Shown here: positions 18,163 through 60,714 of the stretch, piece by piece
How positions within the stretch are numbered: position 1 is the stretch's first letter
Layout: every line of letters begins with the position of its first letter
Virus record (IMG/VR): IMGVR_UViG_3300020112_000204
Location: 8,003 to 72,002 of that record
Strand: one strand, 5' to 3'
Source: a virus
Lineage: Duplodnaviria; Caudoviricetes
Length of the DNA stretch: 64,000 bases
Notes under the pieces: model-generated
Databases searched by the model: none
What the model was told of the DNA's origin: nothing
What the model saw: the letters and a program-made list of their open reading frames with translations, nothing else
Made by a program: the position numbers and the translations under genes

Positions 18163-18687
18163 TTAACTCCCTGCGTTAATCATAATGTCCATTGACACCC
18201 TCTTCATATGCTCGACCCACTCCGTGTATTCTTTTAGGATACTGAACTTATCCTTAGACTTTTCTATCAGTCTACCTTTCAAAGTCTGCATCGAAGCATA
18301 ATCAGGATAGAATATCTTTGAAACATCATACATCTTATTCTTAAACTTAAACACAGGCATACCTGATAAATCGGATACTGATATACTAGTACTACCATCA
18401 GGTCTAATAAACTGAGGCTCTGCATGAGCATACATATAGGGCAGTTTAACTTCCTCTGTATCAAAGAACAAGCACTCGCCCTTTCGACTGTAGGTGTGCT
18501 TAACCGTAACAGATATCGTGGAACTTTCAGCATAGACTACCCAATCTATATATGGTGAGTCTATATGCACAGACTTAGACTCATCCTGAGACATCTTGAA
18601 CTCAGTCTCCTCTAGCTCTTCACTTACCTTAAATATCTTCGGGAAGTGCTTAAACAGAAACTTCTTAAATCGTCCTATCTTAACCAT
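18163..18687 (-). CDS. Hypothetical protein
   Basis: ORF track. Confidence 0.6.
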   Translation of the reverse strand: MVKIGRFKKFLFKHFPKIFKVSEELEETEFKMSQDESKSVHIDSPYIDWVVYAESSTISVTVKHTYSRKGECLFFDTEEVKLPYMYAHAEPQFIRPDGSTSISVSDLSGMPVFKFKNKMYDVSKIFYPDYASMQTLKGRLIEKSKDKFSILKEYTEWVEHMKRVSMDIMINAGS

Positions 18688-19939
18688 AAATTACTCCCTG
18701 CTCCTCCATTTCGTCTGATATATCTGAAACTTGCTCTACCTCTCCGACTTGAGTAAACTGCATAGTTCTAAAGTCTTTAGCTATCTGGAAATTCAACTTA
18801 GAGCCTTCCCTCTGTTTCAGAAGCTTGAGCTTCCACTGATTAAACTCTATCATATCGTCAATACCTATAACTACATCAGAGTCAGCACCGAATGAGGTCT
18901 TACTAAATGCCACACCTCCTAGGGTTACACCGTGCTTTCCCTGTGCTGAAGCATCAGCCTGAGAGGTTATCACACCCGGGATTCCTAGCACTCTACACAT
19001 TCTTTTACAGTCCTGAGTTATGTGCATCATTCTTTCCCACCCCGCATCAGCACCTCGGTCATCCCCTAAGAGGTAAGCACCATCAATACCAAATATGTCT
19101 GGCTGGTACTCCTCAAGCTTAGCCTTAATGCTACCTATACCCGCTCCACCATCCTCATCGGACGATACAATAAAATCGGGCATACCTTTAAGGCTAGGGA
19201 GCTTCTTCTTATATCGTTCCTCTAATGTCTGACCCAGCCTACCTAGCTTAAAGTCATCATACGGGAGTCTAAAATGAATTGCGTCAAGTCTTCTCTGCAT
19301 CTGCTCAACTGACATCTCTCTCGTGAACAGGACTACTTTCTTTCCGCTAAGCCAAGCGTGGTACAGAATTGTGAGCAATATCCATGACTTACCTACAGAC
19401 TGGAAACCTATCAGAGAAATCAACTCTTCATCTAGGATGCCTCCTGTTGTCTCATTCAAGGCTTTCCACGGATATGGAATACCCGTCATACCTAGGTGCT
19501 TCTTGGCACTCTCATACTGCTCAAGTCTCTCATCCATAGTCTCGGTGAAGTTCCTGTCCTTGGTGATATTCGTCTCCATCATCACTACAGTGCCTAGCTT
19601 TTGCCACTGTTTCAGAGCCTCATCAGTATCACGCTTTTCCAGAGACTTTGCAATTCTATTTACACCATCAACAAGCAGATTATACTTTCGCCTTTCCCTC
19701 ATTTCATCAATGAGGTACATCATCGGGTCTTCATGCAGTTCAACCTCATAGCTAGGGAAGTACCTTTGGACTACATCCATTGACGGAACCTCTGAGTACT
19801 CACCATAGTAATCGAGCATGAACTCATATACATCCTTACTCTCGCCTATAAAGAACTTTTTACTTATCTTGCTCTTTATAGCCGTCCTAATGTCCTTGGT
19901 GTCTAGTATCTTACCTACTAGACTTCTCTCAATGTCCAT
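18680..19939 (-). CDS. dnaB: Replicative helicase (DnaB family)
   Basis: GFQSVGKS, EMSVEQM, IDGAYL, TSQ, ADSD, KQREG. Confidence 0.9.
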   Translation of the reverse strand: MDIERSLVGKILDTKDIRTAIKSKISKKFFIGESKDVYEFMLDYYGEYSEVPSMDVVQRYFPSYEVELHEDPMMYLIDEMRERRKYNLLVDGVNRIAKSLEKRDTDEALKQWQKLGTVVMMETNITKDRNFTETMDERLEQYESAKKHLGMTGIPYPWKALNETTGGILDEELISLIGFQSVGKSWILLTILYHAWLSGKKVVLFTREMSVEQMQRRLDAIHFRLPYDDFKLGRLGQTLEERYKKKLPSLKGMPDFIVSSDEDGGAGIGSIKAKLEEYQPDIFGIDGAYLLGDDRGADAGWERMMHITQDCKRMCRVLGIPGVITSQADASAQGKHGVTLGGVAFSKTSFGADSDVVIGIDDMIEFNQWKLKLLKQREGSKLNFQIAKDFRTMQFTQVGEVEQVSDISDEMEEQGVIYG

Positions 19940-27948: not shown

Positions 27949-28294
27949 ATATCTGTCCGTCTGTCATCACACCCTCCTTAATGAACATATCTAATACTTC
28001 TCTCTGGGCTGGAGTTATTATCTCAGCTTTGTATCCGCAACTCCACACGGAGACACAACCTGTCTGTTGAATAAGCCAAGTAAGGTAGTCAAACCACATA
28101 CTCTGAGGACAGCTTTCTATGAACTCCTGACGAGACATACCACGCTGAGTCCTACCTATTTCTATAAGCTTCTCTTGGTGGCTAGGGACAGCATATTCTA
28201 CTGTCCCGTCTGCTCTGACTACCACCTCTAAATAGTTCTTATAGATGCTCATATGCTTGCCTAAATCGAACTCGCAGCTTAAGTCATACATCAA
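27944..28294 (-). CDS. Hypothetical protein
   Basis: ORF track. Confidence 0.6.
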   Translation of the reverse strand: MMYDLSCEFDLGKHMSIYKNYLEVVVRADGTVEYAVPSHQEKLIEIGRTQRGMSRQEFIESCPQSMWFDYLTWLIQQTGCVSVWSCGYKAEIITPAQREVLDMFIKEGVMTDGQIY

Positions 28295-30327
28295 TGCCCC
28301 TCCGACCAGTTTTTACAAATCCGCACATCCGCATCGAGAGGTACTTCTAGCTTGAGAACATTTATCATAGTCTCCTTTACCTCTTTTGCAAGCTCTTCAG
28401 CAAGCTCATCTTTCACGACTATGAGTATCTCATCGTGCACCTGTATCATTAAGTAAGCTCCATCATATTTGGGAAGAACCTCGAAGTGTAACTTATTCAT
28501 AGCCAACTTCATAATGTCTCCTGCTGAACCCTGAATCTTGTTATTGATGCTCTGTCTTTCTGCCGAGCCTTTCTCAGACCACACCTGTGAGTTTATCTGT
28601 GGAAGTCTTCTCTTTCTACCTGTCAAAGTTCTAAGGCTCTGGTACTTTCTAGTCATAATCTTGGTCTTTTCCATAAAGTTCTTTACAGCGGGGAATGCTC
28701 TGAAATACATATCAATGTACTCCTGAGCTTCAGACTCGGTCATTCCTGTTCCACCAGCAAGACCTTTAGCACCCATACCATAAATCAGACCAAAGTTTAC
28801 TGACTTTGCGTTCTGTCGCATAAGCAATACTGCCTTATCCTGTTCTGTAAGGCATCCTTCGTGGTCATGCTTTTTAGCAATCTCAAACGCCTCATACGGA
28901 ATGTGCTTAACCTGTGATGCTGTCTGTGCGTGTAGGTCTCTGCCCGTTCTGTAGGCTTCCACCATAACTGGGTCTTTACTAAAGTGAGCCATAACCCTTA
29001 GCTCAATCTGTGAGTAGTCAGCATTGATTATGCTATGTCCCTCTGGAGCGATAAAGGCTCTCTTTATCTCTGTTTCCTTGTCTCTTGACGGAATGTTCTG
29101 CAAGTTCGGATTATTCGATGACAATCTACCTGTTACGGTGCCTGTCTGGTTAAACTGACCATGTATCTTGCCGTCTGCTCTTATCTTCTCAAGCAAACCT
29201 GTGATATATGTACCCTCAATCTTTGAGAGCATCTTATACCTTGCTATCTTCTGTGCTATCGGGTACCCTTTTCTTGCTAGGATACGCATAGTCTCTGAGT
29301 CTGTAGCAGGAGTTCCTGTCTTTGTTCTACCAAGTACTGGGCAACCCATTTCCTCGAACAGAATCTTTCCTAGCTGCTTAGGGCTATTAACATTTACAGG
29401 CTTACCCGCAAGCTCATTGATATCTGCTTGCAGTTGCATCATCTCAGACTTAACCCAAGTACCTGTCTTTTTCAAGTACTCTACATCAAGGTCTACTCCG
29501 TGGATTTCCATAGAAGTCAGAACCTTAACAAATGGGCACTCAACCTCTAGGAACACTTTAGTCAAACCCTCTGACTCAAGCATTGGTGCTTGCTTCTCCA
29601 TGAGCTTATAGGTTACAATAGCGTCATCTGCACCATACTCTGTAGCTAAAAGAAGCTCTACAGACTTAAAGCTCACACCTTTTCCAACAACTTTGTCGAA
29701 TGGAAGCTGTTCGTAGTTAAAATACCTGCGAGACTGCTTTTTCAGACCATGCTCATTGTTCTCATTCAAAAGCCAGTCTGCAATCATTGTGTCAACAACT
29801 TCTCCTGCTACATCTATGCCACAAGTAAAGTGAAATACCTGCATATCGAACTTAGCATTTTGCAAAATCTTTGTGACTGTTTCATCCTCAAGAAGAGGCT
29901 TAACTAAGTCAATGTAGTCTTTCTTTGACATCTGAATTTCAAGAGTGTCATGAGCTAAAGGAATGTACCAACCCTCTTTACCATCACAGAATGAGCTACC
30001 GACTAACTGACAGCTAACATAATCAAGTGAGTCTGTTTCTGTATCAACGGAGAACGCACCTGACTCCCTGCACTTTCTGACCACCTCTGCGAAATCCTCT
30101 TTAGTCTGAACCAGATACTTAGGTATCCCTAGAGTATCCTCACCAACGCTTATATGAAGAAAGTCTCCATCATTTGTAGGCTCATCTGGAAGACTAAACT
30201 CTGCTTGAGCTTTTTCAAATGCCTGTTCCTCAAAGCTCTTATTTGGCTTTGAACCTAAGTAGTAGGTCTTGTCGATGGTCTTAAGCCCGAACTGACCTTT
30301 AACATATACCTTTTTGACTAACCTCAT
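28291..30327 (-). CDS. polA: Family A DNA polymerase (3'-5' exonuclease + polymerase)
   Basis: VDTET, QNAKFD, TGRLSS.NPNLQNIP, ADYSQIELR, AKSVNFGLIYG, VHDE. Confidence 0.96.
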   Translation of the reverse strand: MRLVKKVYVKGQFGLKTIDKTYYLGSKPNKSFEEQAFEKAQAEFSLPDEPTNDGDFLHISVGEDTLGIPKYLVQTKEDFAEVVRKCRESGAFSVDTETDSLDYVSCQLVGSSFCDGKEGWYIPLAHDTLEIQMSKKDYIDLVKPLLEDETVTKILQNAKFDMQVFHFTCGIDVAGEVVDTMIADWLLNENNEHGLKKQSRRYFNYEQLPFDKVVGKGVSFKSVELLLATEYGADDAIVTYKLMEKQAPMLESEGLTKVFLEVECPFVKVLTSMEIHGVDLDVEYLKKTGTWVKSEMMQLQADINELAGKPVNVNSPKQLGKILFEEMGCPVLGRTKTGTPATDSETMRILARKGYPIAQKIARYKMLSKIEGTYITGLLEKIRADGKIHGQFNQTGTVTGRLSSNNPNLQNIPSRDKETEIKRAFIAPEGHSIINADYSQIELRVMAHFSKDPVMVEAYRTGRDLHAQTASQVKHIPYEAFEIAKKHDHEGCLTEQDKAVLLMRQNAKSVNFGLIYGMGAKGLAGGTGMTESEAQEYIDMYFRAFPAVKNFMEKTKIMTRKYQSLRTLTGRKRRLPQINSQVWSEKGSAERQSINNKIQGSAGDIMKLAMNKLHFEVLPKYDGAYLMIQVHDEILIVVKDELAEELAKEVKETMINVLKLEVPLDADVRICKNWSEGH

Positions 30328-35039: not shown

Positions 35040-35969
35040 TCATTTCTTGAGCAACTGATTTACTTTAGCCTGTACTGCATCATAGTCATACCCAGCCTGA
35101 GTTAGCTTTCTCTTGCGTTCAGAGCCTGTACCCCACTTTCCCTCGAGAACTTCTTTCGCAAGCTCATCTACAGATTTCTTCGAGGACTGAGCAACTGTAG
35201 TGCCGCCCTTTGTGGTAACAAAAGCACTGAAGCCTTTCTTCTTGAGTTCATTGACCAGATTCTCTGCGTTCTGTTTTACAGAGAAAGCACCAAGCTGAAC
35301 CTTGTAATACGGGGAAACGCTTACAAGAATAGCATCCTTATATCCTGCTGACTTCAGAGTCTGAAGCTGTTTCTCAGCATTAGCCTTTACAGAGTATGCT
35401 CCGACCTGAACACGATACAAAGTCTTAGTCTTTGTGCCTGTGTCGCCATTCAGAAGCTTGTTTACCTCAGAGGCGATATAGCCGTGTCTCTCGTACAGAT
35501 AAGTGCCGGGACAAGACTTATTAGCAAACCATCTGTGGACAGTCATATTCTGCTTATCCACCTGACCTATAAGACTCTTGTCACCTTTCCACTTAAGCTC
35601 TTTGATACCATTTCTCTTACAAATATCCGCACAGAGCTTAATCAGAGACTTAAGAGCAGCGTCAGTTACTGCATAGGGTTCTGTGGTATCAGAAGCTACC
35701 TCAATAGTAACTGCTCTGTTGTCATTCTCAGCAGAAGAGGTACACCAAGAACGGTCTTTCTCTTCTACATACATACCAACCTTTCCGTCATACCCGACAC
35801 CATAATTAGAACTAGCCTGACGGGAAGAGGATGCAAATACATTACCCAGACTTTCTACCGATGCTTGACCTACAACACAATGAATGGATATAGTGTCAAT
35901 AGCGTGATTTCTAGGACTGTTTCTATTAGGGCTAATCTTGGTGAACGATACAAGACTTGAGTTACTCAT
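35040..35969 (-). CDS. Endolysin: Amidase_2 + 2 SPOR + CW_7-like repeat
   Basis: ISIHCVVG, ASSNYG, NDNRAVTIEVA, HRWFANKSCPG; YRVQVGAYSVKANA x2; EVLEGKWGTG.ERK. Confidence 0.93.
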   Translation of the reverse strand: MSNSSLVSFTKISPNRNSPRNHAIDTISIHCVVGQASVESLGNVFASSSRQASSNYGVGYDGKVGMYVEEKDRSWCTSSAENDNRAVTIEVASDTTEPYAVTDAALKSLIKLCADICKRNGIKELKWKGDKSLIGQVDKQNMTVHRWFANKSCPGTYLYERHGYIASEVNKLLNGDTGTKTKTLYRVQVGAYSVKANAEKQLQTLKSAGYKDAILVSVSPYYKVQLGAFSVKQNAENLVNELKKKGFSAFVTTKGGTTVAQSSKKSVDELAKEVLEGKWGTGSERKRKLTQAGYDYDAVQAKVNQLLKK

Positions 35970-36321
35970 TACTATCACTCCTTTCTATGCCTGTTCCATT
36001 AAACTTACCATCGTCCAATAAATCCTTGCAGAGGTCAAACCAAAGCTGAACGACTTTTCTCAGGAGATTTTCAGATATAACCAGATTGAATGGGAACGGG
36101 AGAGCTTCAGTTACAAGACCAACTACATAGTTAAACTTCTCCTGATTTTCACCCTGCTTAAAAGCGTGTTCCGCAGATACGAAACCCTTATAAGCAACAG
36201 ACCGTACTGTTTCCAGACCTACTTTCTGAATGACCTTGATGCAAATGTACACTACAAGAGCGGACACTGCAACAATAGCCGCAATAAGCCAGAAACGATT
36301 TTCTACGAGCATTTCGTACAT
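35962..36321 (-). CDS. Probable holin
   Basis: N-terminal TM, directly upstream of endolysin. Confidence 0.65.
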   Translation of the reverse strand: MYEMLVENRFWLIAAIVAVSALVVYICIKVIQKVGLETVRSVAYKGFVSAEHAFKQGENQEKFNYVVGLVTEALPFPFNLVISENLLRKVVQLWFDLCKDLLDDGKFNGTGIERSDSNE

Positions 36322-37783: not shown

Positions 37784-38069
37784 TATACTACACCTCTATA
37801 AATAGCATTTTCCTCAATATCATCGTAATAAACCATATCAGATGATGTGATATCACTAGTAATCAAGCGACCACGCCCTCCAACATACCAGACACTACCC
37901 ATGTTACTCTGCTGAACATTGTAGGGGCTACCTATCCAATCATTAAAAGTCATGCCCTCCTCAAAAAAGAAGGTATCTTCAGTGTCGCTTTCCCTTTTAT
38001 AATAGAACTTTTTTAGCTCTACACTTCTGGAAATGGGTATACCCTTACCTATTATACTCATTATACTAC
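37775..38069. repeat. Identical 17-bp direct repeat (37775-37791, 38053-38069) flanking paralog A
   Basis: TATACTCATTATACTAC twice; on minus strand it spans stop/start overlap GTAGTA-TAATG-AGTATA. Confidence 0.8.
37783..38061 (-). CDS. Small tail-region protein, paralog A
   Basis: MSIIGKGI...FFFEEGMTFNDWIGSPYNV; start reset to 38061. Confidence 0.65.
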   Translation of the reverse strand: MSIIGKGIPISRSVELKKFYYKRESDTEDTFFFEEGMTFNDWIGSPYNVQQSNMGSVWYVGGRGRLITSDITSSDMVYYDDIEENAIYRGVV

Positions 38070-38609
38070 CTCCGCAACAGAGCACTGAACGGTCATAGCT
38101 TGAGTCGGCTTTGCACCTATAGCATACGCAGTGAGCGTACCATCAGTGTTACTAATGAATAGAGCGGATACCTTGTCAGTGATGAGACGACTTATTGCAT
38201 AAGCATTAGGTTGCAAGTCTACCTTACTATTAGCAGTTATCATCTGACCCGTTACAGTCACAACCTGTGTATAAGGACTGCTATTACCTGTCCAAGAAGT
38301 ACTGAAAGCAATAGAACCCATCTTAGTGAGCCTACCCTCAAGATAGGCATTTGTGTCTGCGTTCTGAATGAAAGCTTTATTACCATCAACATCAAAGTCA
38401 AGAACTACTGTAACAAGAGCATTGCTAGCGAAGGCTTCATATTCCCAATCTAAATCTACCCCATGGGCATCGCACAACTCGAAAAATGTCGGGGTTCCAT
38501 CATAGTAAATTTTCAAACCCATAGTGCTTGAGGCACTACAAGGAGCCTTAAACACAACCCTTTCACCCTCAAACGGTGCGTGGTCTAGGTCTACTCTTAT
38601 ATATGACAT
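38061..38609 (-). CDS. Tail fibre-associated protein
   Basis: WTGNSSPYTQVVTVTG.ITANSKVDLQP...LTAYAIGAKPT module. Confidence 0.6.
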   Translation of the reverse strand: MSYIRVDLDHAPFEGERVVFKAPCSASSTMGLKIYYDGTPTFFELCDAHGVDLDWEYEAFASNALVTVVLDFDVDGNKAFIQNADTNAYLEGRLTKMGSIAFSTSWTGNSSPYTQVVTVTGQMITANSKVDLQPNAYAISRLITDKVSALFISNTDGTLTAYAIGAKPTQAMTVQCSVAEVV

Positions 38610-38618
38610 ACTTACCTC

Positions 38619-39554
38619 CTATTCTATGGTAGCTGAGTACAAATTAGACATACTAACCAAATCAAAGCCTAGCTCATTGTAATTCGCAAGAGCTATAGCA
38701 GAAGCCCTTGTCTGACCGTAGAGTACGGTTGCAGGGGTGGGTACTTGGTCGTCTATATCTAAGTATGTCTTTACCGCATAGCTTTCTAGACTATAGCATA
38801 GCTTCTGAACTGAAGCTGGGAAAGGCTCAAACTTAGGAGTGGCTAAGACTGCATAAAATCCACCAGTCAGGTATGACTTTGCCGCTGAGAGACTTGTGAA
38901 GAAACTGTTTGAGGTGCTGTCCTTAATACAAATGTAGCTTGTACTGCCTACCTTATACGCAGAACATCTAACTTTGTCCTCATAGTCATCATAGTCATTA
39001 TCGGGTATTCCTAATGCTATAAAGGATGACATAAGAACTTTGTCCCCATCATTCATCAAGTCCTTTTCTACAGCTAGGACTATCTGATTTCCTGTATTCG
39101 AGGTGGAGAACTGCACTCTTTCCAAGTATGGGTTCCATACTTGGTAATGCACTCTTCTTAGTACTCCCCAAACTCCATCTATTTTGCATATCTCATCGTG
39201 AAACTCCCCTACACTTCTTAGGGGGTCATTGGTGAGTATCTCAAAGGTCTTAACAAGAGTCTTAACCCCATTAACATCTTTTGATAGCTTAACTGTAACT
39301 GAGCAATCATCTTTTGTCTGAGTCAGATTAGCAGTATTTGTAGCATAGGCTCTATTATTCGGTGCGGGTACCGCCCTATCAAACACAGTACTTCCTACTA
39401 TGCGAACTAGCTTAATTCCACCCTCATCTGTAGGGAGCTCAAGAGCATTTCCCGTAGCTGAGAATACTCCATCTACACCATCTTGCAGATTATCATAGAG
39501 AGCCTTATTCATTACTGTGACACCATCTTGTGTCTGAGTTCTCTGGTAAGACAT
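38619..39554 (-). CDS. Putative tail fibre / receptor-binding protein
   Basis: Position after baseplate; DGVTVMNKALYDNLQDGV N-terminal motif. Confidence 0.55.
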   Translation of the reverse strand: MSYQRTQTQDGVTVMNKALYDNLQDGVDGVFSATGNALELPTDEGGIKLVRIVGSTVFDRAVPAPNNRAYATNTANLTQTKDDCSVTVKLSKDVNGVKTLVKTFEILTNDPLRSVGEFHDEICKIDGVWGVLRRVHYQVWNPYLERVQFSTSNTGNQIVLAVEKDLMNDGDKVLMSSFIALGIPDNDYDDYEDKVRCSAYKVGSTSYICIKDSTSNSFFTSLSAAKSYLTGGFYAVLATPKFEPFPASVQKLCYSLESYAVKTYLDIDDQVPTPATVLYGQTRASAIALANYNELGFDLVSMSNLYSATIE

Positions 39555-40482: not shown

Positions 40483-41973
40483 TTAAATCGCCCCCACAGA
40501 AAGAGTTCCTAAAACTATTACCTCGCTCTCAAGCATCGTAGAAGCCGTGCTTGTTGACCCTATAACAATGTCTGTTGTCGGGGAGTCTATGAACACAGAC
40601 CTAAGATGCTCCACACCCGTTTCTGTGTTGGACAATGCCGATATTATATCAGACAAGTATAGTTCTTCACCTATACCTCTACAACCCAAGTCAAGCAAGG
40701 AGTGAACCATACTAGATATACTTGCACTAACCTGACTCGTATAAACTGAGCTTGATGCTCTAAATCTTATTGAGAGATTCACTGTCTTAATAGTCGCCGC
40801 TGATATTGTAAAGGTAGTGCCAACCATAACCTTGTTGCTAAGATACTGAGTAAGCTCATTTATAAGTGACTGGCTGACAACTACTGCTCCCTGAGACTGC
40901 TCAGGGTCTTCAGGAAGGATATACACTGTAGTGGCAAGAGTGCCTGTCTTAAGAGTTTTGCTAGAGAATACCTTATTTGTAGCTAAGATAAGATTGTCAT
41001 AGTCATTTAGAGTAACTGCTCTACCCAATGAGTTCACACTGGCAGGGATATTCCTCTTAAGCTCTTCGAGGGTCTCTTGGTCTACACCTGACTCGTAAGC
41101 CGTAGCAGGATTAAAAGTACTCTCCAGACCACGGATATGGGATACCAAGGACACTATCTTTCCTGCTCCAACATTTCCGAAAGTTCCTCCACCGACACGA
41201 TAAGATGCAACAATACCATTCTCATAAGTAGTAGGTATTGCACCCCTTATACCATCACCAAACCTAACTGTGACTGTGTTGAACTCATCAGTAGAAGCCG
41301 TAAAATGCCTGTCTGTTTCGATGGAGTTTATAAAGTTATCCACCTTAGTCCATCTCTCGTACCTGTCATTATTGTACACCTCAATGAACAGAGAATCTAG
41401 AATGACGGGTTCGTATCCTAGCTGAAACTCCTGACCTGCAGTGCCGTCTGAAGTGCCCAGTATCTCCCTGCTCATCGTAGCTCCCTGAACTATGGAAGCC
41501 TGATACAGATACTCATCGTTTGCGTCCTGCTCTATACCTGTTGCATTAGGCGGGATAGAGAAGTCCTCTTCAACCTCAAACATAATCTGAGGCTCAATCT
41601 GGTTAGCCTCTGTGCTAACCTTGAACCCCTTTGGAATCAAGTACCCAGACGAAGAGGGCGTAACCTTAAACACCTGATGGAACTTTGCAGGTAATGCGTG
41701 GGCAGGAGTGTACGACATCTGACTAGCTATTTTCAAAGCACTCTTTCTGTCTTTGCAGGTAGCAAGAAACAACTCATTAACCTGCCTATCAGTATAGTAA
41801 CTTATTACATCTAGACCGTGAGCAAACAACTCTGCCATAACTACACCGAAGTCACTCTCACTAAAATCAGTGTACTCAGGTATCCTGAGTTTAATGCACT
41901 CAATCATATCATTGCGTAGACCCTCGTAGTCAATGCTGGTATAGTCTATATCTTGCAAAACAACTCTACCCAA
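40483..41973 (-). CDS. Baseplate J-like protein
   Basis: IDYTSIDYEGLR, IPEYTDFSESDFG, FGDGIRGAIP, YRVGGG..GNV, RAVTLNDY. Confidence 0.9.
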   Translation of the reverse strand: MGRVVLQDIDYTSIDYEGLRNDMIECIKLRIPEYTDFSESDFGVVMAELFAHGLDVISYYTDRQVNELFLATCKDRKSALKIASQMSYTPAHALPAKFHQVFKVTPSSSGYLIPKGFKVSTEANQIEPQIMFEVEEDFSIPPNATGIEQDANDEYLYQASIVQGATMSREILGTSDGTAGQEFQLGYEPVILDSLFIEVYNNDRYERWTKVDNFINSIETDRHFTASTDEFNTVTVRFGDGIRGAIPTTYENGIVASYRVGGGTFGNVGAGKIVSLVSHIRGLESTFNPATAYESGVDQETLEELKRNIPASVNSLGRAVTLNDYDNLILATNKVFSSKTLKTGTLATTVYILPEDPEQSQGAVVVSQSLINELTQYLSNKVMVGTTFTISAATIKTVNLSIRFRASSSVYTSQVSASISSMVHSLLDLGCRGIGEELYLSDIISALSNTETGVEHLRSVFIDSPTTDIVIGSTSTASTMLESEVIVLGTLSVGAI

Positions 41974-50034: not shown

Positions 50035-51462
50035 TTAGGACGCTCTACGCTGCTTGATGGTAATAACGGTAAACTCACAGGGCTTAGACTTTGCATAGCC
50101 AATCTGCACATTAAAGGTGTCCGAAGTCGGGGTATTGTTAGTCCAGTCGCAGACTACATCAAAAGCCTCTTCGGGTGTATCACCGACAAAACATCCTGCA
50201 TTGAAAAGCTCAGTCATAAATGCTTTTACTACAGAACTTGTTCTCACGAGCAGGTCAGCAGTAATAGCCTCAAAAACAGTGAACAGAGTCAGCTCTTTCA
50301 GAGACTTATCCATATAGATGTCAATGTGGGACTGAGAGATATACTTTCTATTCTGCTGCTTGTTCTCTTTCAGAACTCGGGAACCCCAGATACAGATACC
50401 ATAGCCAGCCTGAGGTACGATGCAGTTTACATTAGCAGAGTTGAGAATACCGCAGTCTCTATCAGAGAATACTTTAGTTACACCAACCCAGCCTTCGCAA
50501 ACGCAAGTGACACCAGCAGGAGTCTTAGCAATACCCCTACCCTGTACAGATGCAGAGAAGTTACCGAGTACCACACCACAAGGAGGTACATTTCTCTTTG
50601 CACCTGTAAGCTGGTCAATACAAACGCCCCAAGGAGCAAAGCAAGCCGCCATATCAGTGGCAATTCCAAGGGCAAAAGTCTTAAGTGCGGAAGTCGTAGT
50701 TGAAGCTAGGGGAGTGTCGATTACTGCAAAGGTCTTACCCGCTCTAGTAACATCAACAAAAGTCTTGAGGGCAGTAGTAATCGTACTAGAAGTCTCGCCG
50801 GGGATTGCCACCCAAGTAATATCCTCTTCCTCGAGAAGTGCCAGTGCCGCAGTATAGTCTGCATCAGCTATACCGGTTGCACCACCTACGCCACCCTCAA
50901 GAGTGAGAGAAGCTACTGCAAGGTTCTCAGCAGTGATAGTAATATAGTCATCTTCTGCTATAGCCTTTACCCACTAATCTACATCAGTAGCAGTATTCGA
51001 CAGACCTACATACGCAGTAAGCACAGAACCATCAAGGGTTACTGAAATGTCGAACTTAGAGCTATCCTCAGTATTAGCAGTAATAGCTACAACTGCATCA
51101 TTAGCCCAATCACCATAGTCCTTTGCAGTAACGGTTATAGTAGAGCCTGTGTTGGACTTTGTAGCCTTAACTGCTGAAGCGGAGTGGATTGCTCTTGCAA
51201 TAAAGCAAGCAGAACCACCACATCTAAAGAAGTCATATACAGCATACGCCAGATGACTATTAGACATATAAGGGCTAGAACTGCCCTTACCGAACTCCTT
51301 AGCAAACTCTGCAAATGAAGTGACATACACTGCCTCTTCAGTAGTACCGCTAATAGCAGTACCTACAAACGCCGCTATACCCCAGCCTTCTCCCGCAGAG
51401 GGTGCGTTCTCCAGAGGAAGTCGCTCAATATAAGGATTCGGTTTCTTCTTATTGATATCCAT
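50035..51462 (-). CDS. Tail sheath protein, 475 codons, interrupted by one in-frame TAG at 50974-50976
   Basis: Track ORFs 50974..51462 and 50035..50811 share a frame; intervening 54 codons are open (WVKAIAEDDY...GIADADY..AL). Confidence 0.88.
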
Positions 51463-54041: not shown

Positions 54042-54917
54042 TTACCAAGTCTCAAGAATATAAGCGGAATCGTCTTCAATAAGACCAGAACCCATAATGG
54101 AGTACCATGCAAGGTTATGGGTACGACCAAAGTCGATGATACCACCATCACGCATCTCAACGGGGAGAGACTCAGCGAGTCCGTAGACATTATCACCGAA
54201 GATAACTGCACGGTGAACATCAGCAGTATTACCTGCGGTAGTCTTGTTAATAATCGGCTGCTGAGTAGTCTCAATAAACAGGACATTACCGACTCTGCCG
54301 ATTTCGCCAGTAAAGGTTGCACCGTAATCGGTTGCTCTCTGGAACTCGGGGTCATCACTCAGGTCACGAGCCTGTTTGGGAGTAAGCATACATACCCAGT
54401 ACTGACCATTCCAAGGTCTTGCAAGGTTCTCCTTGAGGTGCTGGAGAGCATCCTTAATGATAGCAGAGTTCATCTTCTCGGATACTGTTGCACGGGTAGT
54501 ACCACCATTGTACAGAACATTGGTAACGCCCATAACAGTGTCACGGAGCATCTCATCGAGAACTACTGCGTAGTCAAAGCCGAGGAGCTTTGCACCATTG
54601 CTCAGAGTGTCGTCAAATGCGGACTGGAGCAGTTTCTCGGAAACGCTGATTGCATTACCATACTCAGTTACGGTAATGGTAATCTGAGATGCAGTGAGTG
54701 CCTGAGTGGTCATTGCCTGATTCTCAGTCAGAGCACCACCCTTGGTGATGTTATTGTACTTGGTGAAAACAACACTGAGACCAGGGTCTACACCGAGCTC
54801 GGTCTTCTTGGTTGCGAACTGTGCGTACTTCAGGTTAGGCTGAGCGTGGAACATAACCTCTTTGGAATATACGGTCAGTACTACCTGAGTCAGAGTAGTG
54901 GTATAAGTAGTTGCCAT
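54042..54917 (-). CDS. Major capsid protein (N4-gp56 family)
   Basis: L.EGQ-like LTENQ, ITITVTEYGNAISVSE, GEIGRVGNVLFIET, DFGR. Confidence 0.9.
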   Translation of the reverse strand: MATTYTTTLTQVVLTVYSKEVMFHAQPNLKYAQFATKKTELGVDPGLSVVFTKYNNITKGGALTENQAMTTQALTASQITITVTEYGNAISVSEKLLQSAFDDTLSNGAKLLGFDYAVVLDEMLRDTVMGVTNVLYNGGTTRATVSEKMNSAIIKDALQHLKENLARPWNGQYWVCMLTPKQARDLSDDPEFQRATDYGATFTGEIGRVGNVLFIETTQQPIINKTTAGNTADVHRAVIFGDNVYGLAESLPVEMRDGGIIDFGRTHNLAWYSIMGSGLIEDDSAYILETW

Positions 54918-54935: not shown

Positions 54936-55661
54936 TTATTTAATCATTTTCTTTATTTCTTCTCTGTGCTTCGCATACTCACTAGGACTCATTTTCATAA
55001 TATCCTCTGTGGTAAGCTTTCTTGCTCCAGCATCCTGCTGGGGAGCTACGGGCTTGGGAGCGGGCTTCTTCTCTTTTCTACCTGAGGCTCTAGCCACGAT
55101 TTCCTCATACTTGGCTTTAGCCTTCTCGATACTAGAGTCGATTTCCTCTTCCGAACTACCTACTACAAGGTCTTCAATCAAGTCAGACCCACTGTCTCTT
55201 ACGAACTGAATAGCCTTTTCTCGGTAAAGTTCGAGTGCTTTCTCGGCTCTTGCTTTCTCAGCATCTTCAAGCTTGTTTTTCAGACCATCAATCTCAACCT
55301 TAAGGTCAGCAATGGTGGTGTCCTTGCCTTCCTTATAAGATGCAATGGTTCTTTCAAGCGTTGACACCGTTTCAGAAAGCTCACGAATCTTTGCGTCTTT
55401 CTTTTCAATCGCATCATACAGCTTGGTCTTTTCCTGCTGACGAACCTTTCTGAGGAATTCCTTAACATCCTGTCTCTTAAGCAGTTTATCAAGAGCGGGC
55501 TCTTCTTCAGATACCTCATTGGCTTTCTTTTCTTCTTCAGTCAGTTCTTCCTCGGCTTCGGAGTCCTGGCTGTCAAGGAGAGCTTCATTCTCGTCAACCT
55601 GCTCTTCAACAGAGATGCCTTCCTCGGTCTGTCCTATGACTACTCCTTTGTCTTTATCCAT
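54936..55661 (-). CDS. Capsid scaffolding protein
   Basis: Acidic coiled coil; C-terminal IMKMSPSEYAKHR; precedes MCP. Confidence 0.8.
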   Translation of the reverse strand: MDKDKGVVIGQTEEGISVEEQVDENEALLDSQDSEAEEELTEEEKKANEVSEEEPALDKLLKRQDVKEFLRKVRQQEKTKLYDAIEKKDAKIRELSETVSTLERTIASYKEGKDTTIADLKVEIDGLKNKLEDAEKARAEKALELYREKAIQFVRDSGSDLIEDLVVGSSEEEIDSSIEKAKAKYEEIVARASGRKEKKPAPKPVAPQQDAGARKLTTEDIMKMSPSEYAKHREEIKKMIK

Positions 55662-55683: not shown

Positions 55684-55989
55684 TCAGTACAACGCAAGTT
55701 CACAGATTCCTACAGTCTCAAGCGTAACTGTAATCAAATCTGTGAGTTGCGATTGTCTGTCAGACAACTCGAGGAACTCTGAATACAATTCCTCGACCTC
55801 GTTCATATTCGGGTCAGACATCTTGTCCAACTCTTCTAGACTAACCCGTATCTCTTCAAGCCTATCTTCGACCTTTGTAAGCTCTTTATCATAGGAAACT
55901 AAACTGGATTTCTCATCCTTAAGTATATCCTCTAACTCCGAACTTGTAAAGTCTAAAGCTAATAAACATTCGTTTTCTATACTACTCAT
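55684..55989 (-). CDS. Acidic coiled-coil hypothetical protein
   Basis: ORF track; coupled to MuF gene. Confidence 0.6.
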   Translation of the reverse strand: MSSIENECLLALDFTSSELEDILKDEKSSLVSYDKELTKVEDRLEEIRVSLEELDKMSDPNMNEVEELYSEFLELSDRQSQLTDLITVTLETVGICELALY

Positions 55990-58900
55990 TACTTACCTCC
56001 TGATATGAGCTTATTAAACAACTGCTTCAAATCAGAATCAGTGACCTTTCCCATAGTGCTTAAAACCTTGGTCTCTTTCCTAGACCGCTCTATGGTCTTG
56101 GTAAGCTCAGTATCATACTCTGTCTGAGTGAGCAAAAAGTATTGCTTAGTGTCAGTAGCCTTAAGTCCTCGATGCGTTCTTGCCTGTAACTGCTCTAGAA
56201 CATACGCTGAATCGGGTCGGTCATAGATTATAGCGTTATCTGCAAAGTCTAGGTTTACACCAGTATTCAACTGGCTTCCTGCAACTAAAATCTTTGCATC
56301 TTTATCTGCTCTAAAAGCACTGATAACCTGTCTACCTTTGACACCGCCTGTATTAGCTACATACACTCCCTCTTCACCAAGCATCTCGATTATCCTTTTC
56401 CTAGCCTGAGTGGACTGGACATGGATGACGGTCTTTCCCTCCATCTTTCCCACAAGCTTACTCAAAGCAGTAATCTTTGCAGTGGATTTCTTTCCGATAA
56501 GGGAAGACTGAGTAGCGAGCATTTCTCTTTTAGCTCTACTTCTAGACATCTCACCCATCTTAACTGCGGAGTCTAGTAAAGCTTGCTTCTTAGCCAAAAA
56601 AGCCTTATCCTCTGGGTTCAAGGCAACTTTGACTACTTTTTCTATAAGCTTACCTTTACGCTTGCCCTCTGCGGAAATCAGGAAGGGGTCTACTATCTTC
56701 TTAAGCTCTCTCTTAGCCTGTTCAGATGCTACTGTGGACAATTCACCAAAGCTAGAAAATGCCTTAGAGAACTGAGCTCTAGTTCCAACCGCCTCGGGGT
56801 TCAACCATTTTGCAATGTCATACAGGTCATCAATCTTGTCCATAATTGGGGTACCTGTCATCGCAACCTTAGTCTCAACACCCTTAAGCTTCTGAACTAA
56901 CTCTATTGGGGACACACCATCCTTACCCATTGGAGCAATAAAGGTATGAGCCTCGTCTATGATTACTGTGTCATACCCAGCCTCAGCTATTCGGTCAAAA
57001 TCTCTGACAAACTGTTGCTTACTGACTGAGGTAATGAGCTTATCTGTGTTCTTATAGTCAAAACGAGAGCTTCTTACCGTTGTGGCAGTGAAGGTACTAA
57101 AAGTCTCTACCTCATCCACATACTGACCCGCTAGACCATTGTTCATAGTTACATAGAGAACTTTCTTACCTTTGCCTTTGGCTTGAAGCTCTCCTATGCC
57201 TCCTATTGAGGTCAAGGTCTTACCTGAACCTACTTGGTAGTCAATCAAAGCGGACTGTTGTTCAGCGATGAACTTAGCACCTCTCTGCTGTGCTGGTAAC
57301 ATCTTAAGGACTTTTTCTTCGCCTGTTTTTGGGTCTATATAAATGTCACGAAGTCCCTGAGCTTTCCAACTCTCCGAAATCTTGGCTGTTCGTATCTTCT
57401 TAGCCTTGGAGCTAAGGCTTATACCCTGTTCTGAAGTACCTAAACCTCGTAGAGTCTTCATTCCATTCTTGTCTATTACAAGTCTGGAGTTATTCTGCAT
57501 TACCTTGAAACTCTTAGGGTCTAGCCCAAGTTCTCTAGCTAATTTCACAGCCTGAGTCTTACTCTTAACTGGGATAGCAAGGTACTCCCTAGTACCTGAT
57601 ACACTTAAAGCATCTAGCAAGCTCTGAGTGGTCTTAGAGTAACCTAAAGCGTCACCTAATTCCTCTCTGGACTTCTTCAATAGCAGAGCTCTCTGTCTTT
57701 GAGCAGAGGCTTTACTTATCTCTCCGTCAGTAAAGGCTTTCTTAACTGCACTGACTTCCCTAAATGTCTTTGTTGCCTGTTTCTGAGAAGCATTAAGCAT
57801 CCTAGGAACATCTGTTTCCATAGACCTTGACAAGGCTTCAATAGCTTGCCCAGACAAACCACGAGACTGTATCTCGTCAGCTAAAAGTCTTACTGCACTA
57901 TCTACGCCTATCTTCTCAACTATATCCTGAGACAGTGCGGGCATACCTAAATCCGAAGCTAGACTTGAGTAAGCCCTATATCCACCTTTCCTAATAGCTA
58001 CATTGAGCGAAGAGTCTGTTACAACCGTACCACCATTTAGCCCCGTTTTCAGCCTCTTTTCCATTCGACTGATTGCTTCTTTGGTCTCGGTAGCTGAACG
58101 CTTAGGTGCGGTCAGGGTTGAGCCATGCTTAATCTCGTTCTCTTTCCACTTCTTATAATATTCACTACCTAGGGTGTCTAGCTCATTACTTGGAGAATTT
58201 ACGAGCTCATCACCTATATTGGCAAATACCTGTTTTCTAGTTACAACAGCCATACCTAGGTCTGAGTCATAAAGAGGTTCTATTTCACACTCACAGTACG
58301 GATGAGGGTACTTAGGCATTTCCTTTGCAGTATATACTCCGTGCTCATCAATAGTTATTCCACTCTGAGCTAATAACTTATGAGCCTGTTCCCCTGTGTT
58401 CTCCGCAAAGTCATCACAAATATCCCGCTTCGGGTGCCTAGCACTCATTGTCCATCTTCCAAGCATATCAAGTTCGTCAAGAAAACTCCTAACGGTCTCC
58501 TGCTTGGCTCGATTTACCTCAGATATAGCTAAACGAGAGTTTCTGTTCACGATGCTACCACCGTTTATCAAACCCTGAGAGGACGGCGTATTCAGAAATT
58601 TCCTTGCATTTAGCCTATTCTTACCTTGCTGACCCTGAACCATTCCATTACTGGTATACTGTGTCATTCTAGCTTGGACAATTCCCTGTGAGGTCTTAAG
58701 TCTCTGACTAAGCGTCTTACCTCTGAACTTTCCCGTCATAGTCCTTGAGGTCTTGGACATTATGGATGATTTCTGAGAGGTAGTCAAACCTACACCCGTA
58801 GTCTCAATCAGTCTCTTGTCTAGCTTCTGAAGAGAACTCTCAATCTGAGAATCCATAGCACTAGTTATAGAGGACTTTACATCACTAGTCAAATTTCGAG

Positions 58901-59042
58901 CCAGTCTCTTAGACGAATTTTGTGCCCTAGCATAATTCAATGTGTCGTCCGTCTTAACTAACCTAGATGCCTTAGCACTGTATTCCTCATGAATATCCTC
59001 GATTGAGCGAACCGCAGTCAGTGCTTGTGTCCTCGTTCCCAT
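55989..59042 (-). CDS. MuF/SPP1 gp7-like head protein fused to SNF2-type helicase
   Basis: RLAISEVNRA..., W..S.RHP..DICD, YPHPYCEC; QVGSGKT, IIDEAH, TGTP, TGVNL, EQLQARTHR. Confidence 0.82.
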   Translation of the reverse strand: MGTRTQALTAVRSIEDIHEEYSAKASRLVKTDDTLNYARAQNSSKRLARNLTSDVKSSITSAMDSQIESSLQKLDKRLIETTGVGLTTSQKSSIMSKTSRTMTGKFRGKTLSQRLKTSQGIVQARMTQYTSNGMVQGQQGKNRLNARKFLNTPSSQGLINGGSIVNRNSRLAISEVNRAKQETVRSFLDELDMLGRWTMSARHPKRDICDDFAENTGEQAHKLLAQSGITIDEHGVYTAKEMPKYPHPYCECEIEPLYDSDLGMAVVTRKQVFANIGDELVNSPSNELDTLGSEYYKKWKENEIKHGSTLTAPKRSATETKEAISRMEKRLKTGLNGGTVVTDSSLNVAIRKGGYRAYSSLASDLGMPALSQDIVEKIGVDSAVRLLADEIQSRGLSGQAIEALSRSMETDVPRMLNASQKQATKTFREVSAVKKAFTDGEISKASAQRQRALLLKKSREELGDALGYSKTTQSLLDALSVSGTREYLAIPVKSKTQAVKLARELGLDPKSFKVMQNNSRLVIDKNGMKTLRGLGTSEQGISLSSKAKKIRTAKISESWKAQGLRDIYIDPKTGEEKVLKMLPAQQRGAKFIAEQQSALIDYQVGSGKTLTSIGGIGELQAKGKGKKVLYVTMNNGLAGQYVDEVETFSTFTATTVRSSRFDYKNTDKLITSVSKQQFVRDFDRIAEAGYDTVIIDEAHTFIAPMGKDGVSPIELVQKLKGVETKVAMTGTPIMDKIDDLYDIAKWLNPEAVGTRAQFSKAFSSFGELSTVASEQAKRELKKIVDPFLISAEGKRKGKLIEKVVKVALNPEDKAFLAKKQALLDSAVKMGEMSRSRAKREMLATQSSLIGKKSTAKITALSKLVGKMEGKTVIHVQSTQARKRIIEMLGEEGVYVANTGGVKGRQVISAFRADKDAKILVAGSQLNTGVNLDFADNAIIYDRPDSAYVLEQLQARTHRGLKATDTKQYFLLTQTEYDTELTKTIERSRKETKVLSTMGKVTDSDLKQLFNKLISGGK

Positions 59043-59050
59043 CTAGTCAC

Positions 59051-60487
59051 CTACTCATCTAAGTTTGCTCCCATCTGTTGTTCAATCGGAGTGTTACCTG
59101 AGTATCCCGTATCAAACATCAGATTCTGCTTCTCAAGCTGATACTCCCTAATCTTTGCGAGCTTCTCCTGAATATCGCCTTTGTACCCAAGCTCTTTCAA
59201 TGCACCTTCAGGCTCTTCTAATCCACTATTAAGCTTCTGGGCTAACAACTGCATCTGAATCTGCTCATCCTTGGGAAGCGGGTCTGCAAACTGAACTTCT
59301 GGGTTAAACGCTTTCTTCCTCTTCTCTGGGTCATCAAGAATAGCTTTAACCGCAGAGCTTACATCTGAGTCGCCATTCTCAGCAAGGAGCTTAAGCACCA
59401 TAATCACTACTTTTCTGAGACCCGCACCATAGGTCATACGCTTAATCCAAGTCTTTTCAAGAAGCGGGGAATAGGTTATCTGGAGAGCAACACCTGTAGT
59501 ATTACTGATTGCCCCACTTGCACCGAGGCTCATCTCTGGGGTGTTACTAAGCTCGTGAATGGACTTCTTAATCATAGTGATAAAATTATTTGAGGCATTT
59601 AAGTCTGAGGACAGCTCCAGATTATAAATCTTTGCGTCTTTAGGTAGACCTCCCCAGACTTTCTTAGCACCTCTTTCGAGGTTCTTACTTCTAGCACCTT
59701 GAATAATCGTAATCGGGGCGGCGTGATAATTGATAATGTCTGATACATCTGTAACCTTTGCATTAAGTTCCCTTTGCAACGGGACAATGCTAACAAGGTC
59801 AGACTGTCCATAGCAGAAACCCGCAAGGGGCATATTCTTAATGTGGACTACATTTATCATCTTCAGAGGATTTTCTATGTCCTCTACCACGGTGTCGCCA
59901 TTCTTAGTTATAATTCTATCCTTAGTGATTGTCTGAGTGTATACATAGTCAGTTTGTCCATCATCACTAAGAACGAGGTACTTTATTACACAAGAGACCA
60001 TCTTGTCTCTACGCTGAGGGTCATACTCAGGGAACACAGTATTATATGGAAGCAGGTTTATCGAAACCTTTCCCTCAGGGTGAAGCTCATCATCTTCATC
60101 GTCCCAAGCGACCTGTAAGAAAGCATCACCTGTGATTGAACCCTGTTGTCCAAGCATTATTGACTTAACATCCATATCATTATTTGAAAACACCTCTTTA
60201 ATGATAGGGCTAAGAACATCATGCACATCCGAGTCAAACTGAAATGTGTATCCCTTGCCGAATAAGAAACTAGTGGACTTGTCAACAATAGCTTTACAGT
60301 AGTTCAGTGTAACTGTCGGGTCACTATAATCTGTGTTATCCTCTAAATCTGTAGCTGTTCTAAGGTATCCCCACTGGTCTCCTAAGTAGAATTTCCAATA
60401 GATGCCTCCAAGCTGAATTCTCTTTGACTCTTCAGCCGAGAGGGTCGAGGTCAGGTCAAACGGGGTGATTACTTTAGATATCCTCAT
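59051..60487 (-). CDS. Portal protein (SPP1-like)
   Basis: LNYCKAIVD...FLFGK, GSITGDAFL, G.SDL..I..LQ, TGVAL. Confidence 0.9.
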   Translation of the reverse strand: MRISKVITPFDLTSTLSAEESKRIQLGGIYWKFYLGDQWGYLRTATDLEDNTDYSDPTVTLNYCKAIVDKSTSFLFGKGYTFQFDSDVHDVLSPIIKEVFSNNDMDVKSIMLGQQGSITGDAFLQVAWDDEDDELHPEGKVSINLLPYNTVFPEYDPQRRDKMVSCVIKYLVLSDDGQTDYVYTQTITKDRIITKNGDTVVEDIENPLKMINVVHIKNMPLAGFCYGQSDLVSIVPLQRELNAKVTDVSDIINYHAAPITIIQGARSKNLERGAKKVWGGLPKDAKIYNLELSSDLNASNNFITMIKKSIHELSNTPEMSLGASGAISNTTGVALQITYSPLLEKTWIKRMTYGAGLRKVVIMVLKLLAENGDSDVSSAVKAILDDPEKRKKAFNPEVQFADPLPKDEQIQMQLLAQKLNSGLEEPEGALKELGYKGDIQEKLAKIREYQLEKQNLMFDTGYSGNTPIEQQMGANLDE

Positions 60488-60714
60488 TTGCCCTCCTTTC
60501 CTGACTTAAAAGCATTGAGCACTGAGTTACTGTGGACTCCTATCTGTGATTCTCTGTCTGCCTTAAGTAGCTCACGCACATTCTTTTGTCTTATCTCTCT
60601 CTGTTCCTTAGTCTCATTAGGTTGCTTAAGGTACTTCATTCTAAAGTACATTTCTTCCTCGGACTGAGACTCATATGAAGACTGGTCACCTGTCATATTC
60701 TGCATCTGCTCCAT
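60484..60714 (-). CDS. Hypothetical protein
   Basis: ORF track. Confidence 0.55.
   Translation of the reverse strand: MEQMQNMTGDQSSYESQSEEEMYFRMKYLKQPNETKEQREIRQKNVRELLKADRESQIGVHSNSVLNAFKSGKEGK

Follow-up and report, generated by a model that had tools for sequence, protein, structure and literature searches.

The earliest stage of an infection is decided by the proteins carried along with the phage DNA, and few of them have a known activity. In phage SPP1, gp7 binds the portal strongly and thereby enters the interior of the procapsid in few copies; assembly can do without it, but it helps infection to start, raising infectivity about four-fold, and gp7-like proteins carry C-terminal toxins that were proposed to be delivered into the host (PMC6316719). 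PMC5512222 describes MuF domains fused to many effector domains, and also SWI2/SNF2 ATPases of polyvalent proteins, which as a rule come with an adenine methylase; an example is the P1 head protein DarB, which protects incoming P1 DNA in cis from type I restriction. A further system is the large virionic helicase (Lvh) of Thermus phage Lalka27a, a protein of 1715 amino acids (aa) with a C-terminal superfamily 2 (SF2) helicase, which is encoded among structural genes and which peptide mass fingerprinting detected in virions purified on a sucrose gradient (bioRxiv 10.64898/2026.04.20.719267). Here we analysed a stretch of 64,000 nucleotides (the window), which is the last 64 kb of the 72,002-bp linear IMG/VR contig IMGVR_UViG_3300020112_000204 (completeness estimate, 59%). 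It holds a gene whose 1017-aa product, P0001, joins a divergent MuF/gp7-like domain, a middle module homologous to part of Lvh and an intact SNF2 ATPase. We compared this fusion gene with independent IMG/VR loci (among them L001, L002, L003/4/6, L011 and L012) and with protein relatives from metagenomes (P0003–P0008, P0018 and P0052).

An earlier note, made from the letters of the window, had reported a 1017-aa open reading frame (ORF) between the portal and scaffold genes with two MuF motifs. Both statements were borne out: the frame is open over 1017 codons, and DICD and HPYCEC were found at aa 207 and aa 247, respectively. The same note had singled out a basic middle region. This region is indeed basic (isoelectric point (pI) of the middle third, 9.73), but no more so than the other two parts, as the whole protein has a pI of 9.65 and its thirds lie at 9.5–9.7. 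The full-length AlphaFold2 (AF2) model reached a mean predicted local distance difference test (pLDDT) score of 83.6.

Nearly all genes of the window are on the minus strand. The fusion gene starts 8 nt after the TAG stop of the portal gene, whose product is the presumed docking partner of the MuF-like domain, and it is followed, in order, by a 101-aa acidic ORF, a scaffold-like gene and the major capsid gene (Table 1). Promoter-like and terminator-like sites are not enriched across 53.5–61 kb, which fits a single, tightly packed late operon. The 241-aa scaffold-like protein matched no family in Pfam, PHROG or NCBIfam; its homologues occupy the equivalent slot in L001, L002, L003/4/6 and L011. 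The order orf76–portal–fusion–(small ORF)–scaffold–major capsid gene, where orf76 encodes a 76-aa protein, is kept in L001, L002 and L003/4/6. As this gene order recurs on independent contigs and as full-length homologues (25–71% identity) exist, we concluded that the fusion gene is not an assembly chimera.

The Pfam model Phage_Mu_F (PF04233) recognised neither the whole of P0001, nor its first 300 aa alone (E ≤ 10), nor its relatives; it matched none of 65 family members, while the control, SPP1 gp7, matched it at 6.8e-33. The identity of the N-terminus therefore required more sensitive methods. The PHROG matches of P0001 in this part all belong to the head-and-packaging class (phrog_595, 5.9e-7; phrog_1657, 2.5e-6; phrog_115, 5.5e-6). 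Two of these families are also those of SPP1 gp7 (phrog_115 at 1.5e-66 and phrog_595 at 1.8e-37), and the relative encoded by L012 matches phrog_1657 at 7e-93 and phrog_115 at 4.5e-20. When an alignment of 79 N-domains was compared by hhalign with that of 20 PF04233-positive gp7 relatives, the probability was 91.3% (E, 9.3e-7). The gp7 alignment was needed for this signal, since a comparison with gp7 as a lone sequence told us nothing (probability 4.9). With the MAC threshold set low, the two alignments were collinear over 285 columns with the W, H and CxC residues paired: RLxxSExxRA, W197, H203 and YPHPxCxC of the family stood against ARRxARTEGHR, W, H and NCRC of gp7. The signature residues of the N-domain are R170, E175, R178, W197, H203, C209, G235, P243 and YPHPxCxC at 245–252.

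The predicted structure gave a consistent picture. The AF2 model of aa 1–300 (pLDDT 88.6; predicted template-modelling (TM) score 0.84) had 53 matches in BFVD at E ≤ 1e-3, with TM scores up to 0.68, and the named ones are MuF-like, minor capsid, head morphogenesis, capsid-maturation-protease, portal or ADP-ribosyltransferase proteins. A fold search of the PDB returned helical-bundle noise only, and no solved MuF structure surfaced in it. From tblastn of the N-domain against cultured phages, we observed only weak matches, which fell on actinobacteriophage genes annotated as MuF-like minor capsid proteins. The position immediately after the portal gene is also taken by the MuF-like gene in L001, L002, L003/4/6, L011 and L012. 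Thus the MuF nature of the N-terminus, on which the earlier note had let its reading depend, is supported by PHROG, hhalign and AF2 although PF04233 fails, and we concluded that P0001 begins with a divergent domain of the MuF/gp7 family, ~265 aa long, in the canonical slot after the portal gene. Because a large MuF-like clade escapes the Pfam model, PF04233-based surveys undercount MuF-cargo fusions.

The C-terminal part is a motor. Over residues 583–958, Pfam placed SNF2-rel_dom (PF00176; 5.6e-12, 45.8 bits against a cut-off of 24.9), ResIII (PF04851; 3.6e-12, 47 bits, cut-off 22.5) and Helicase_C (PF00271; 8.4e-8, 32.9 bits, cut-off 23.5), and P0001 also matched the DNA helicase family phrog_62 at 3.1e-50. 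The best relative of solved structure by sequence is the Sulfolobus SWI2/SNF2 core 1z63 (2.9e-12). The complete set of SF2 motifs claimed by the earlier note is there, with PAQQ at 583, GSGKT at 605, DEAH at 696, TGTP at 729 and QLQARTHRG at 949–957, and every catalytic motif is conserved in 22 fused homologues. In these, Q585, G605/G607/K608/T609, D696/E697, T729/G730/T731, G928/N930 and Q951/R955/R958 are invariant or nearly so. The fold comparison of the full-length model, which covered residues about 540–1000, pointed to the same family. In VIA, Ino80 was best (Z 31.4; root-mean-square deviation (rmsd) 3.0 Å over 392 residues), followed by SWR1 (31.2), Snf2h (29.9) and CSB (29.5), and the SF2 helicases outside the SNF2 family scored lower (XPB, Z 22.3; DinG, 20.9; RecQ-type, 18–19). 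Foldseek found CSB, Mot1 and ISWI at about 1e-16, and its top 50 rows were all SNF2-family enzymes. We concluded from sequence and model that the C-terminus is an intact SNF2 ATPase, with a predicted capacity to translocate on double-stranded DNA (dsDNA).

Among the relatives, all three parts of the protein diverge at similar rates, the motor being slightly the most conserved. This similar divergence and the invariance of the catalytic motifs in the 22 homologues argue that the motor is under selection as part of the fusion. Elsewhere in the window, and separate from the fusion gene, lie the genes of a replication set (PolA, a DnaB-like helicase, primase, ligase, a UvsX-like recombinase and a further SF2 helicase), and hence the motor of the head operon is not the replicative helicase. 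One relative, P0008 (673 aa), switches right after the Walker A sequence GAGKG to Hint/intein-like sequence (…TPTGFKTIGELKIGDEV…), and Pfam Hint_2 and Intein_splicing were matched by one of the 65 family members. An intein at this place, within the P-loop, would be in keeping with an ATPase of functional importance.

The region between anchor and motor had no match in Pfam, PHROG or the ESM Atlas, and its tblastn search against cultured phages at E ≤ 0.1 returned nothing. It is nevertheless conserved, with the motifs GGxRAY (353–358), IGV (378–380) and ELGDAxGY (461–468); the invariant columns are G353, G354, R356, A357 and Y358, I378, G379 and V380, E461–Y468, L505 and G506, and W559. The full-length model shows a helical bundle at residues ~290–480 and then a small alpha/beta unit at ~488–570. 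We built a hidden Markov model (HMM) from residues 300–580 of P0001 and nine relatives of its clade. This HMM gave 84.7 bits on residues 454–684 of Lvh, and the best of 2000 shuffled Lvh sequences reached 8.1 bits. BLASTP aligned residues 351–564 of P0001 with Lvh 460–683 at 27% identity, and the helicases, residues 585–988 with Lvh 1195–1682, at 23% identity (E, 6e-8). These sequence comparisons make the middle region a conserved module with a homologous counterpart within Lvh; the Lvh-type module is detectable only in the clade of the window, in P0018 and in Lvh itself.

The likeness to Lvh extends beyond the module. The best PHROG family of both proteins is phrog_62 (3.1e-69 for Lvh), both combine the middle module with a helicase, and both genes lie among structural genes. 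Of the two, it is Lvh that was detected in virions. The two proteins also differ. Lvh has ~500 extra residues between middle module and helicase. Its gene, gene 41 of the Lalka27a record, is sited between tail and baseplate genes, whereas the fusion gene directly follows the portal gene. Moreover, Lvh has no MuF-like N-terminus: the MuF-like profile found nothing on Lvh residues 1–1006, and PHROG gave no head-protein match for its N-terminus. The fusion is thus, roughly and as far as homology tells, a compact Lvh whose N-terminal part appears swapped for a portal-binding anchor. The homology of both middle module and helicase to Lvh lends indirect support to the idea of a helicase packaged in the virion.

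By analogy with these systems, the most likely role of P0001, which we favour with some reserve, would be that of a motor packed in the capsid, delivered with the genome and acting on incoming DNA. We infer the steps from portal binding, packaging and ejection to the cellular target as follows. The MuF/gp7-like domain would bind the portal during procapsid assembly, so that few copies become enclosed in the head, with the middle module and the active SNF2 dsDNA translocase as cargo. At infection, the protein would leave the capsid with the genome, ahead of any phage gene expression, and would use host ATP to translocate on the entering dsDNA. As the protein has no methylase, nuclease or other catalytic domain, translocation is the only activity that can be predicted, which favours the displacing or obstructing of host proteins that are bound to DNA or track along it, or help in genome entry. 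The likeliest action would be to push off or block such proteins, with restriction or other defence complexes and nucleoid proteins as candidate targets, and the motor may also help to draw the genome in. The shielding or remodelling of incoming DNA that the earlier note had proposed is conjecture.

The distribution of the family bears on this reading. A profile search of 1.84 billion representative proteins (E ≤ 1e-3) found a MuF-like clade of 2624 members, most of about 300 aa. We examined 155 family proteins, namely the best 150 rows of this search and the closer relatives from the first search. An SNF2 domain is present in 22 of the 155, always starting at residue ~570–600, except for one that starts at ~796. 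A further ~34 proteins are 450–760 aa long and have other or unassigned C-terminal parts, and among the cargo of the family are one ADP-ribosyltransferase domain and one PI3/PI4-kinase-like domain. Varied C-terminal cargo on the same MuF-like family makes the pattern of an anchor with exchangeable cargo.

This diversity fits delivery better than a second role that could be given to P0001, that of a late helper of assembly or packaging. Such a helper would dock at the portal vertex via its MuF-like domain and act in the producing cell without being delivered, for example by freeing concatemeric DNA of branched structures or bound proteins before the terminase reaches them. The gene does lie in the late head operon beside the portal gene, and, as the capsid holds no ATP, the motor can work only in a cytoplasm, which in principle may be that of the producing cell. 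SPP1 gp7, however, sits inside the procapsid and not outside (PMC6316719), an internal MuF protein could not get to the terminase, as this lies on the portal's outer face, and the homologous Lvh is present in finished virions (bioRxiv 10.64898/2026.04.20.719267). We therefore consider it improbable that the motor serves the producing cell.

Full-length relatives of P0001 came from metagenomes only, in a close group of 58–71% identity and a distant one of 25–32%. The window had no near-DNA match in cultured phages, and no relative was found among 185,579 reference prokaryote genomes. We also observed unfused relatives. In L011, whose portal is 33% identical, a 298-aa MuF-like protein occupies the slot of the fusion, and in the weaker relative L012, where the portal match spans only ~160 residues, the MuF-like protein has 350 aa. 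Judged by the portal, the nearest cultured phages are Bacillus phage BCD7 (35.7%) and Streptomyces phage BRock (33.6%), and neither has a MuF gene between its portal and scaffold genes. In a tree of the N-domains, made by FastTree only and with some short proteins that may be fragments from contig ends or truncated gene calls, P0001 fell in a clade that has good support and comprises ten fused proteins plus one fragment, with the other fused proteins scattered among unfused ones. A single origin of the fusion was unsupported, as the tree needs 12 changes, at least 7 of them forced by well-supported branches. The pattern fits, so far as this tree goes, an anchor with repeated gain or loss of its motor cargo. 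In L002, the fusion protein has 1518 aa, with a 518-aa C-terminal extension after the helicase (L002:6823-8379, plus strand); PHROG gave no match to the extension, and Pfam, run on the whole protein, assigned no domain to it.

A third role would be that of a genome-internalisation motor, packaged and ejected as above, in which the SNF2 translocase reels a roughly 100-kb genome into the cytoplasm. It would be held at the cell entry point or at the leading DNA end via the gp7-like and middle modules, and would replace the transcription- or enzyme-driven pulling of other phages. Several observations speak for it: gp7 supports the start of SPP1 infection, with only about 25% of gp7-less virions being infectious (PMC6316719); SNF2 enzymes are dsDNA translocases, and the closest structures to the motor are Ino80, SWR1, Snf2h and CSB; the completeness estimate of the contig implies a long genome; and the protein has no methyltransferase or nuclease domain that would point to chemical anti-restriction. 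Against it, no anchoring point in the envelope is evident, and no membrane segment was noted on reading the sequence, without transmembrane prediction; relatives of the head module manage with the motorless MuF-like protein of L011 or, in BCD7 and BRock, with none. This role is drawn from analogy only, and we hold it to be an outside chance.

Several points weigh against a delivered motor. Because PF04233 fails, the link to gp7 is one of remote homology, and portal binding is perhaps not conserved. The absence of a MuF gene from BCD7 and BRock indicates that the MuF-type module is dispensable for this head type. The injection of Lvh is a presumption of its authors (bioRxiv 10.64898/2026.04.20.719267), and little can be learnt from its packaging route about that of the fusion, since Lvh has no MuF-like N-terminus and its gene stands in a tail/baseplate cluster. 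A folded 115-kDa two-lobed ATPase would have to unfold for the tail channel. Finally, the fusion was found in no cultured phage: none in the collection covers at least 80% of P0001 or of the distant fused relative P0052. The lack of an acidic ORF beside the fused gene of L002, described below, belongs with these points. The delivered motor remains the role that we favour.

The small acidic ORF that the earlier note had described as coupled to the fusion gene proved to be so. Its ATG overlaps the stop codon of the fusion gene (TAATG), 5 nt past a GGAGGT that lies within the last codons of that gene, and it encodes 27 D/E against 8 K/R. It matched no family in Pfam, PHROG or NCBIfam, with only weak coiled-coil noise. 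Positional analogues of 101–105 aa, acidic and helical, are present in L001 (pI 4.25) and L003/L006 (pI 4.56), so that an acidic helical ORF of ~100 aa stands at this position in three of four related lineages. The similarity among lineages is below BLAST detection; the analogues of L001 and L003/L006 are collinear with the ORF of the window at 17–22% identity and have in common with it a central PN and a C-terminal E-x-I-x-x-x-E. No acidic ORF lies beside the fused gene of L002, and the C-terminal extension of the L002 protein had no significant similarity to the acidic ORFs. Nor is there one at this position in the unfused L011, in BCD7 or in BRock.

In the favoured mechanism, the 101-aa protein would be made in step with the motor and would probably act at assembly, either holding or silencing the motor or as an accessory to the scaffold. 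The roles of chaperone or inhibitor that the earlier note had suggested for it are conjecture. The tie of its translation to the fusion gene, and the occurrence of its analogues beside fused genes and not beside the unfused one, nor in BCD7 and BRock, are suggestive of a link with the motor, though this link rests on the sequences of very few lineages. The protein may instead serve the scaffold or head assembly as an accessory factor, its gene just happening to lie between the MuF-type and scaffold genes. Like the 241-aa scaffold-like protein encoded next, it is acidic and helical (pI 4.05, against 4.87 for the latter), its only family matches are weak coiled-coil segments, and it is missing beside the fused gene of L002. 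It thus resembles the acidic coiled coils of the scaffold type as much as anything else. We regard a scaffold accessory as about as likely as a motor partner, and a purely positional association with the motor as a strong contender that falls a little short of even. L003 and L006 have an extra 104-aa ORF between the fusion gene and the acidic ORF (L003:5302-5616 and L006:11115-11429, plus strand), with a GHSDDVTC motif and no match in PHROG or NCBIfam; we take this motif to be reminiscent of Prp-type cysteine proteases.

The middle module and the acidic protein can be joined in one scheme, which we put forward as a long shot. The module of ~220 residues, common to the fused family and Lvh, would be a dedicated 'virion-motor' domain, by which the SNF2 translocase is tied either to the ejection channel or to one end of the DNA in the capsid, and the acidic protein would be a DNA-mimicking lock. 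If so, the phage would bring an ATP-driven motor for DNA entry or for clearing defences that works in the first seconds of infection, and the acidic lock would keep it silent until packaged. In any case, the fusion is compact, has no other enzymatic domain and recurs in many uncultured phages, and it thereby makes a clean test case for a delivered DNA translocase, be its function anti-restriction, removal of host proteins or genome entry. The link to Lvh offers, with Lalka27a, a cultured and genetically tractable system for the shared middle module and motor.

The remaining features of the window describe the phage that carries this locus. The replication and recombination set is complete within 9771-30327 (minus strand), and the replication set, together with a baseplate wedge gene and an amidase endolysin gene, points to a large lytic myovirus-type phage. 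The gene orf76 (60484-60714, minus strand) immediately precedes the portal gene and overlaps it by 4 nt; its position is kept in seven related loci, with 29–50% identity over ~46 residues. From there to the contig end (60730-63254, minus strand) lie two genes. One product, of 300 aa, has an InlB B-repeat domain (PF18998, 7e-18) at its C-terminus, and the other, of 507 aa, a Y_phosphatase3 domain (5.1e-30). In most relatives, the gene of the large terminase lies within ~1–3 kb upstream of the portal gene; the 72-kb record has no terminase gene.

The tail sheath gene (50035-51462, minus strand) is a collinear frame of 476 codons with a single in-frame TAG at 50974-50976 (GAT GTA GAT TAG TGG). 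Its relatives are intact, with 483 aa in L003 and at least 419 aa in L002, where the locus end cuts the gene, and they have Tyr at the aligned position; the TAG is thus a one-base TAY-to-TAG change, probably a nonsense variant or an assembly error, with suppression as a possibility. General recoding of TAG was rejected, as TAG ends 16 of 87 ORFs and readthrough would merge only two ORF pairs. The second such pair in the same frame (311 aa and 182 aa; 38061-39554, minus strand) would give a 497-aa frame if the intervening TAG were read through.

Table 1. Positions in the 64,000-nt window of the fusion gene, its parts, its operon neighbours and other phage genes, with the basis of each assignment
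Feature	Position	Strand	Basis
Fusion gene P0001: MuF-like / Lvh-type middle module / SNF2 ATPase, 1017 aa	55989..59042	-	ORF, homologues P0003-P0007, AF2 model
Divergent MuF/SPP1-gp7-like head-anchoring domain, aa 1 to ~265	58248..59042	-	PHROG, hhalign, AF2/BFVD
Conserved middle module, aa ~345-567, no named family	57342..58010	-	Conservation, HMM and BLASTP against Lvh
SWI2/SNF2-family ATPase, aa ~580-1000, all catalytic motifs	56043..57305	-	Pfam, phrog_62, 1z63, Foldseek, VIA
Coupling signal: GGAGGT 56000-55995; stop TAA 55991-55989 overlapping ATG 55989-55987	55987..56000	-	Read from sequence
101-aa acidic helical ORF, pI 4.05	55684..55989	-	Sequence, translational coupling
241-aa acidic scaffold-like protein, pI 4.87	54936..55661	-	Position between MuF-type gene and major capsid gene
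Major capsid protein	54042..54917	-	phrog_1357 1.5e-48, PF25209 6.2e-8
SPP1-type portal gene	59051..60487	-	PF05133 3.4e-40, phrog_64 6.4e-56
PolA	28291-30327	-	Replication set
DnaB-like helicase	18680-19939	-	Replication set
Primase	17123-18160	-	Replication set
Ligase	15881-16888	-	Replication set
SF2 helicase	14297-15619	-	Replication set
UvsX-like recombinase	9771-10904	-	Recombination
Baseplate wedge gene	40483-41973
Amidase endolysin	35040-35978

Finally, we compared the fusion with the other described systems. With SPP1 gp7 and Mu gpF it has in common the place of its gene directly after an SPP1-type portal gene, and its N-domain is collinear with the whole of gp7, with the R..E..R, W, H and CxC positions kept. 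It differs from gp7 in lying below PF04233 detection, in its YPHPxCxC motif and in having a single upstream Cys (DICD). Like other MuF-cargo fusions, it carries C-terminal enzymatic cargo on a MuF-type anchor; the cargo here is an SNF2 motor and not a toxin, RNase, ADP-ribosyltransferase or RelA/SpoT domain.

P1 DarB, to which the earlier note had likened the protein, turned out to be a loose analogue. Both are large proteins with a SWI2/SNF2-related ATPase, and DarB, in the account of PMC5512222, is head-borne and thought to act on entering DNA. The fusion, in contrast, lacks the methylase that is present in DarB-like methylase-helicase proteins: no methyltransferase family was found by Pfam, PHROG or NCBIfam in the whole 1017 aa or in the middle region. 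P0001 did not match phrog_10089 ('DarB-like antirestriction'), for which Lvh has a weak match, and no P1 record was among the 103 tblastn matches of P0001 at E ≤ 1e-5. DarB also needs the Hdf/DarA loading system, while the fusion has its own MuF-type anchor. As these searches found no methylase and no match to the DarB-like PHROG family, we take the fusion not to be of the DarB type.

With the cellular SNF2 enzymes (1z63, Ino80, SWR1, ISWI/Snf2h, CSB and Mot1), the motor shares the two-lobed ATPase with SNF2-specific helical insertions (VIA Z 31.4–29.5; rmsd ~3 Å over 390–420 residues). It differs from them by its 16–21% identity, by the lack of chromatin-targeting accessory domains and by its context in a phage head operon.

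MuF-cargo fusions were already known, and the arrangement is thus less singular than the earlier note implied. On the basis of these comparisons, the fusion belongs to that class and, by homology, also to the Lvh-type virion helicases. In the main text of PMC5512222, we found no MuF–SNF2 protein without a methylase explicitly described. Relative to the descriptions that we found, three points are new: a MuF-type anchor is fused directly to a bare SNF2 motor, the middle region is recognised as a module common to Lvh, and a large MuF-like clade is missed by the Pfam model.

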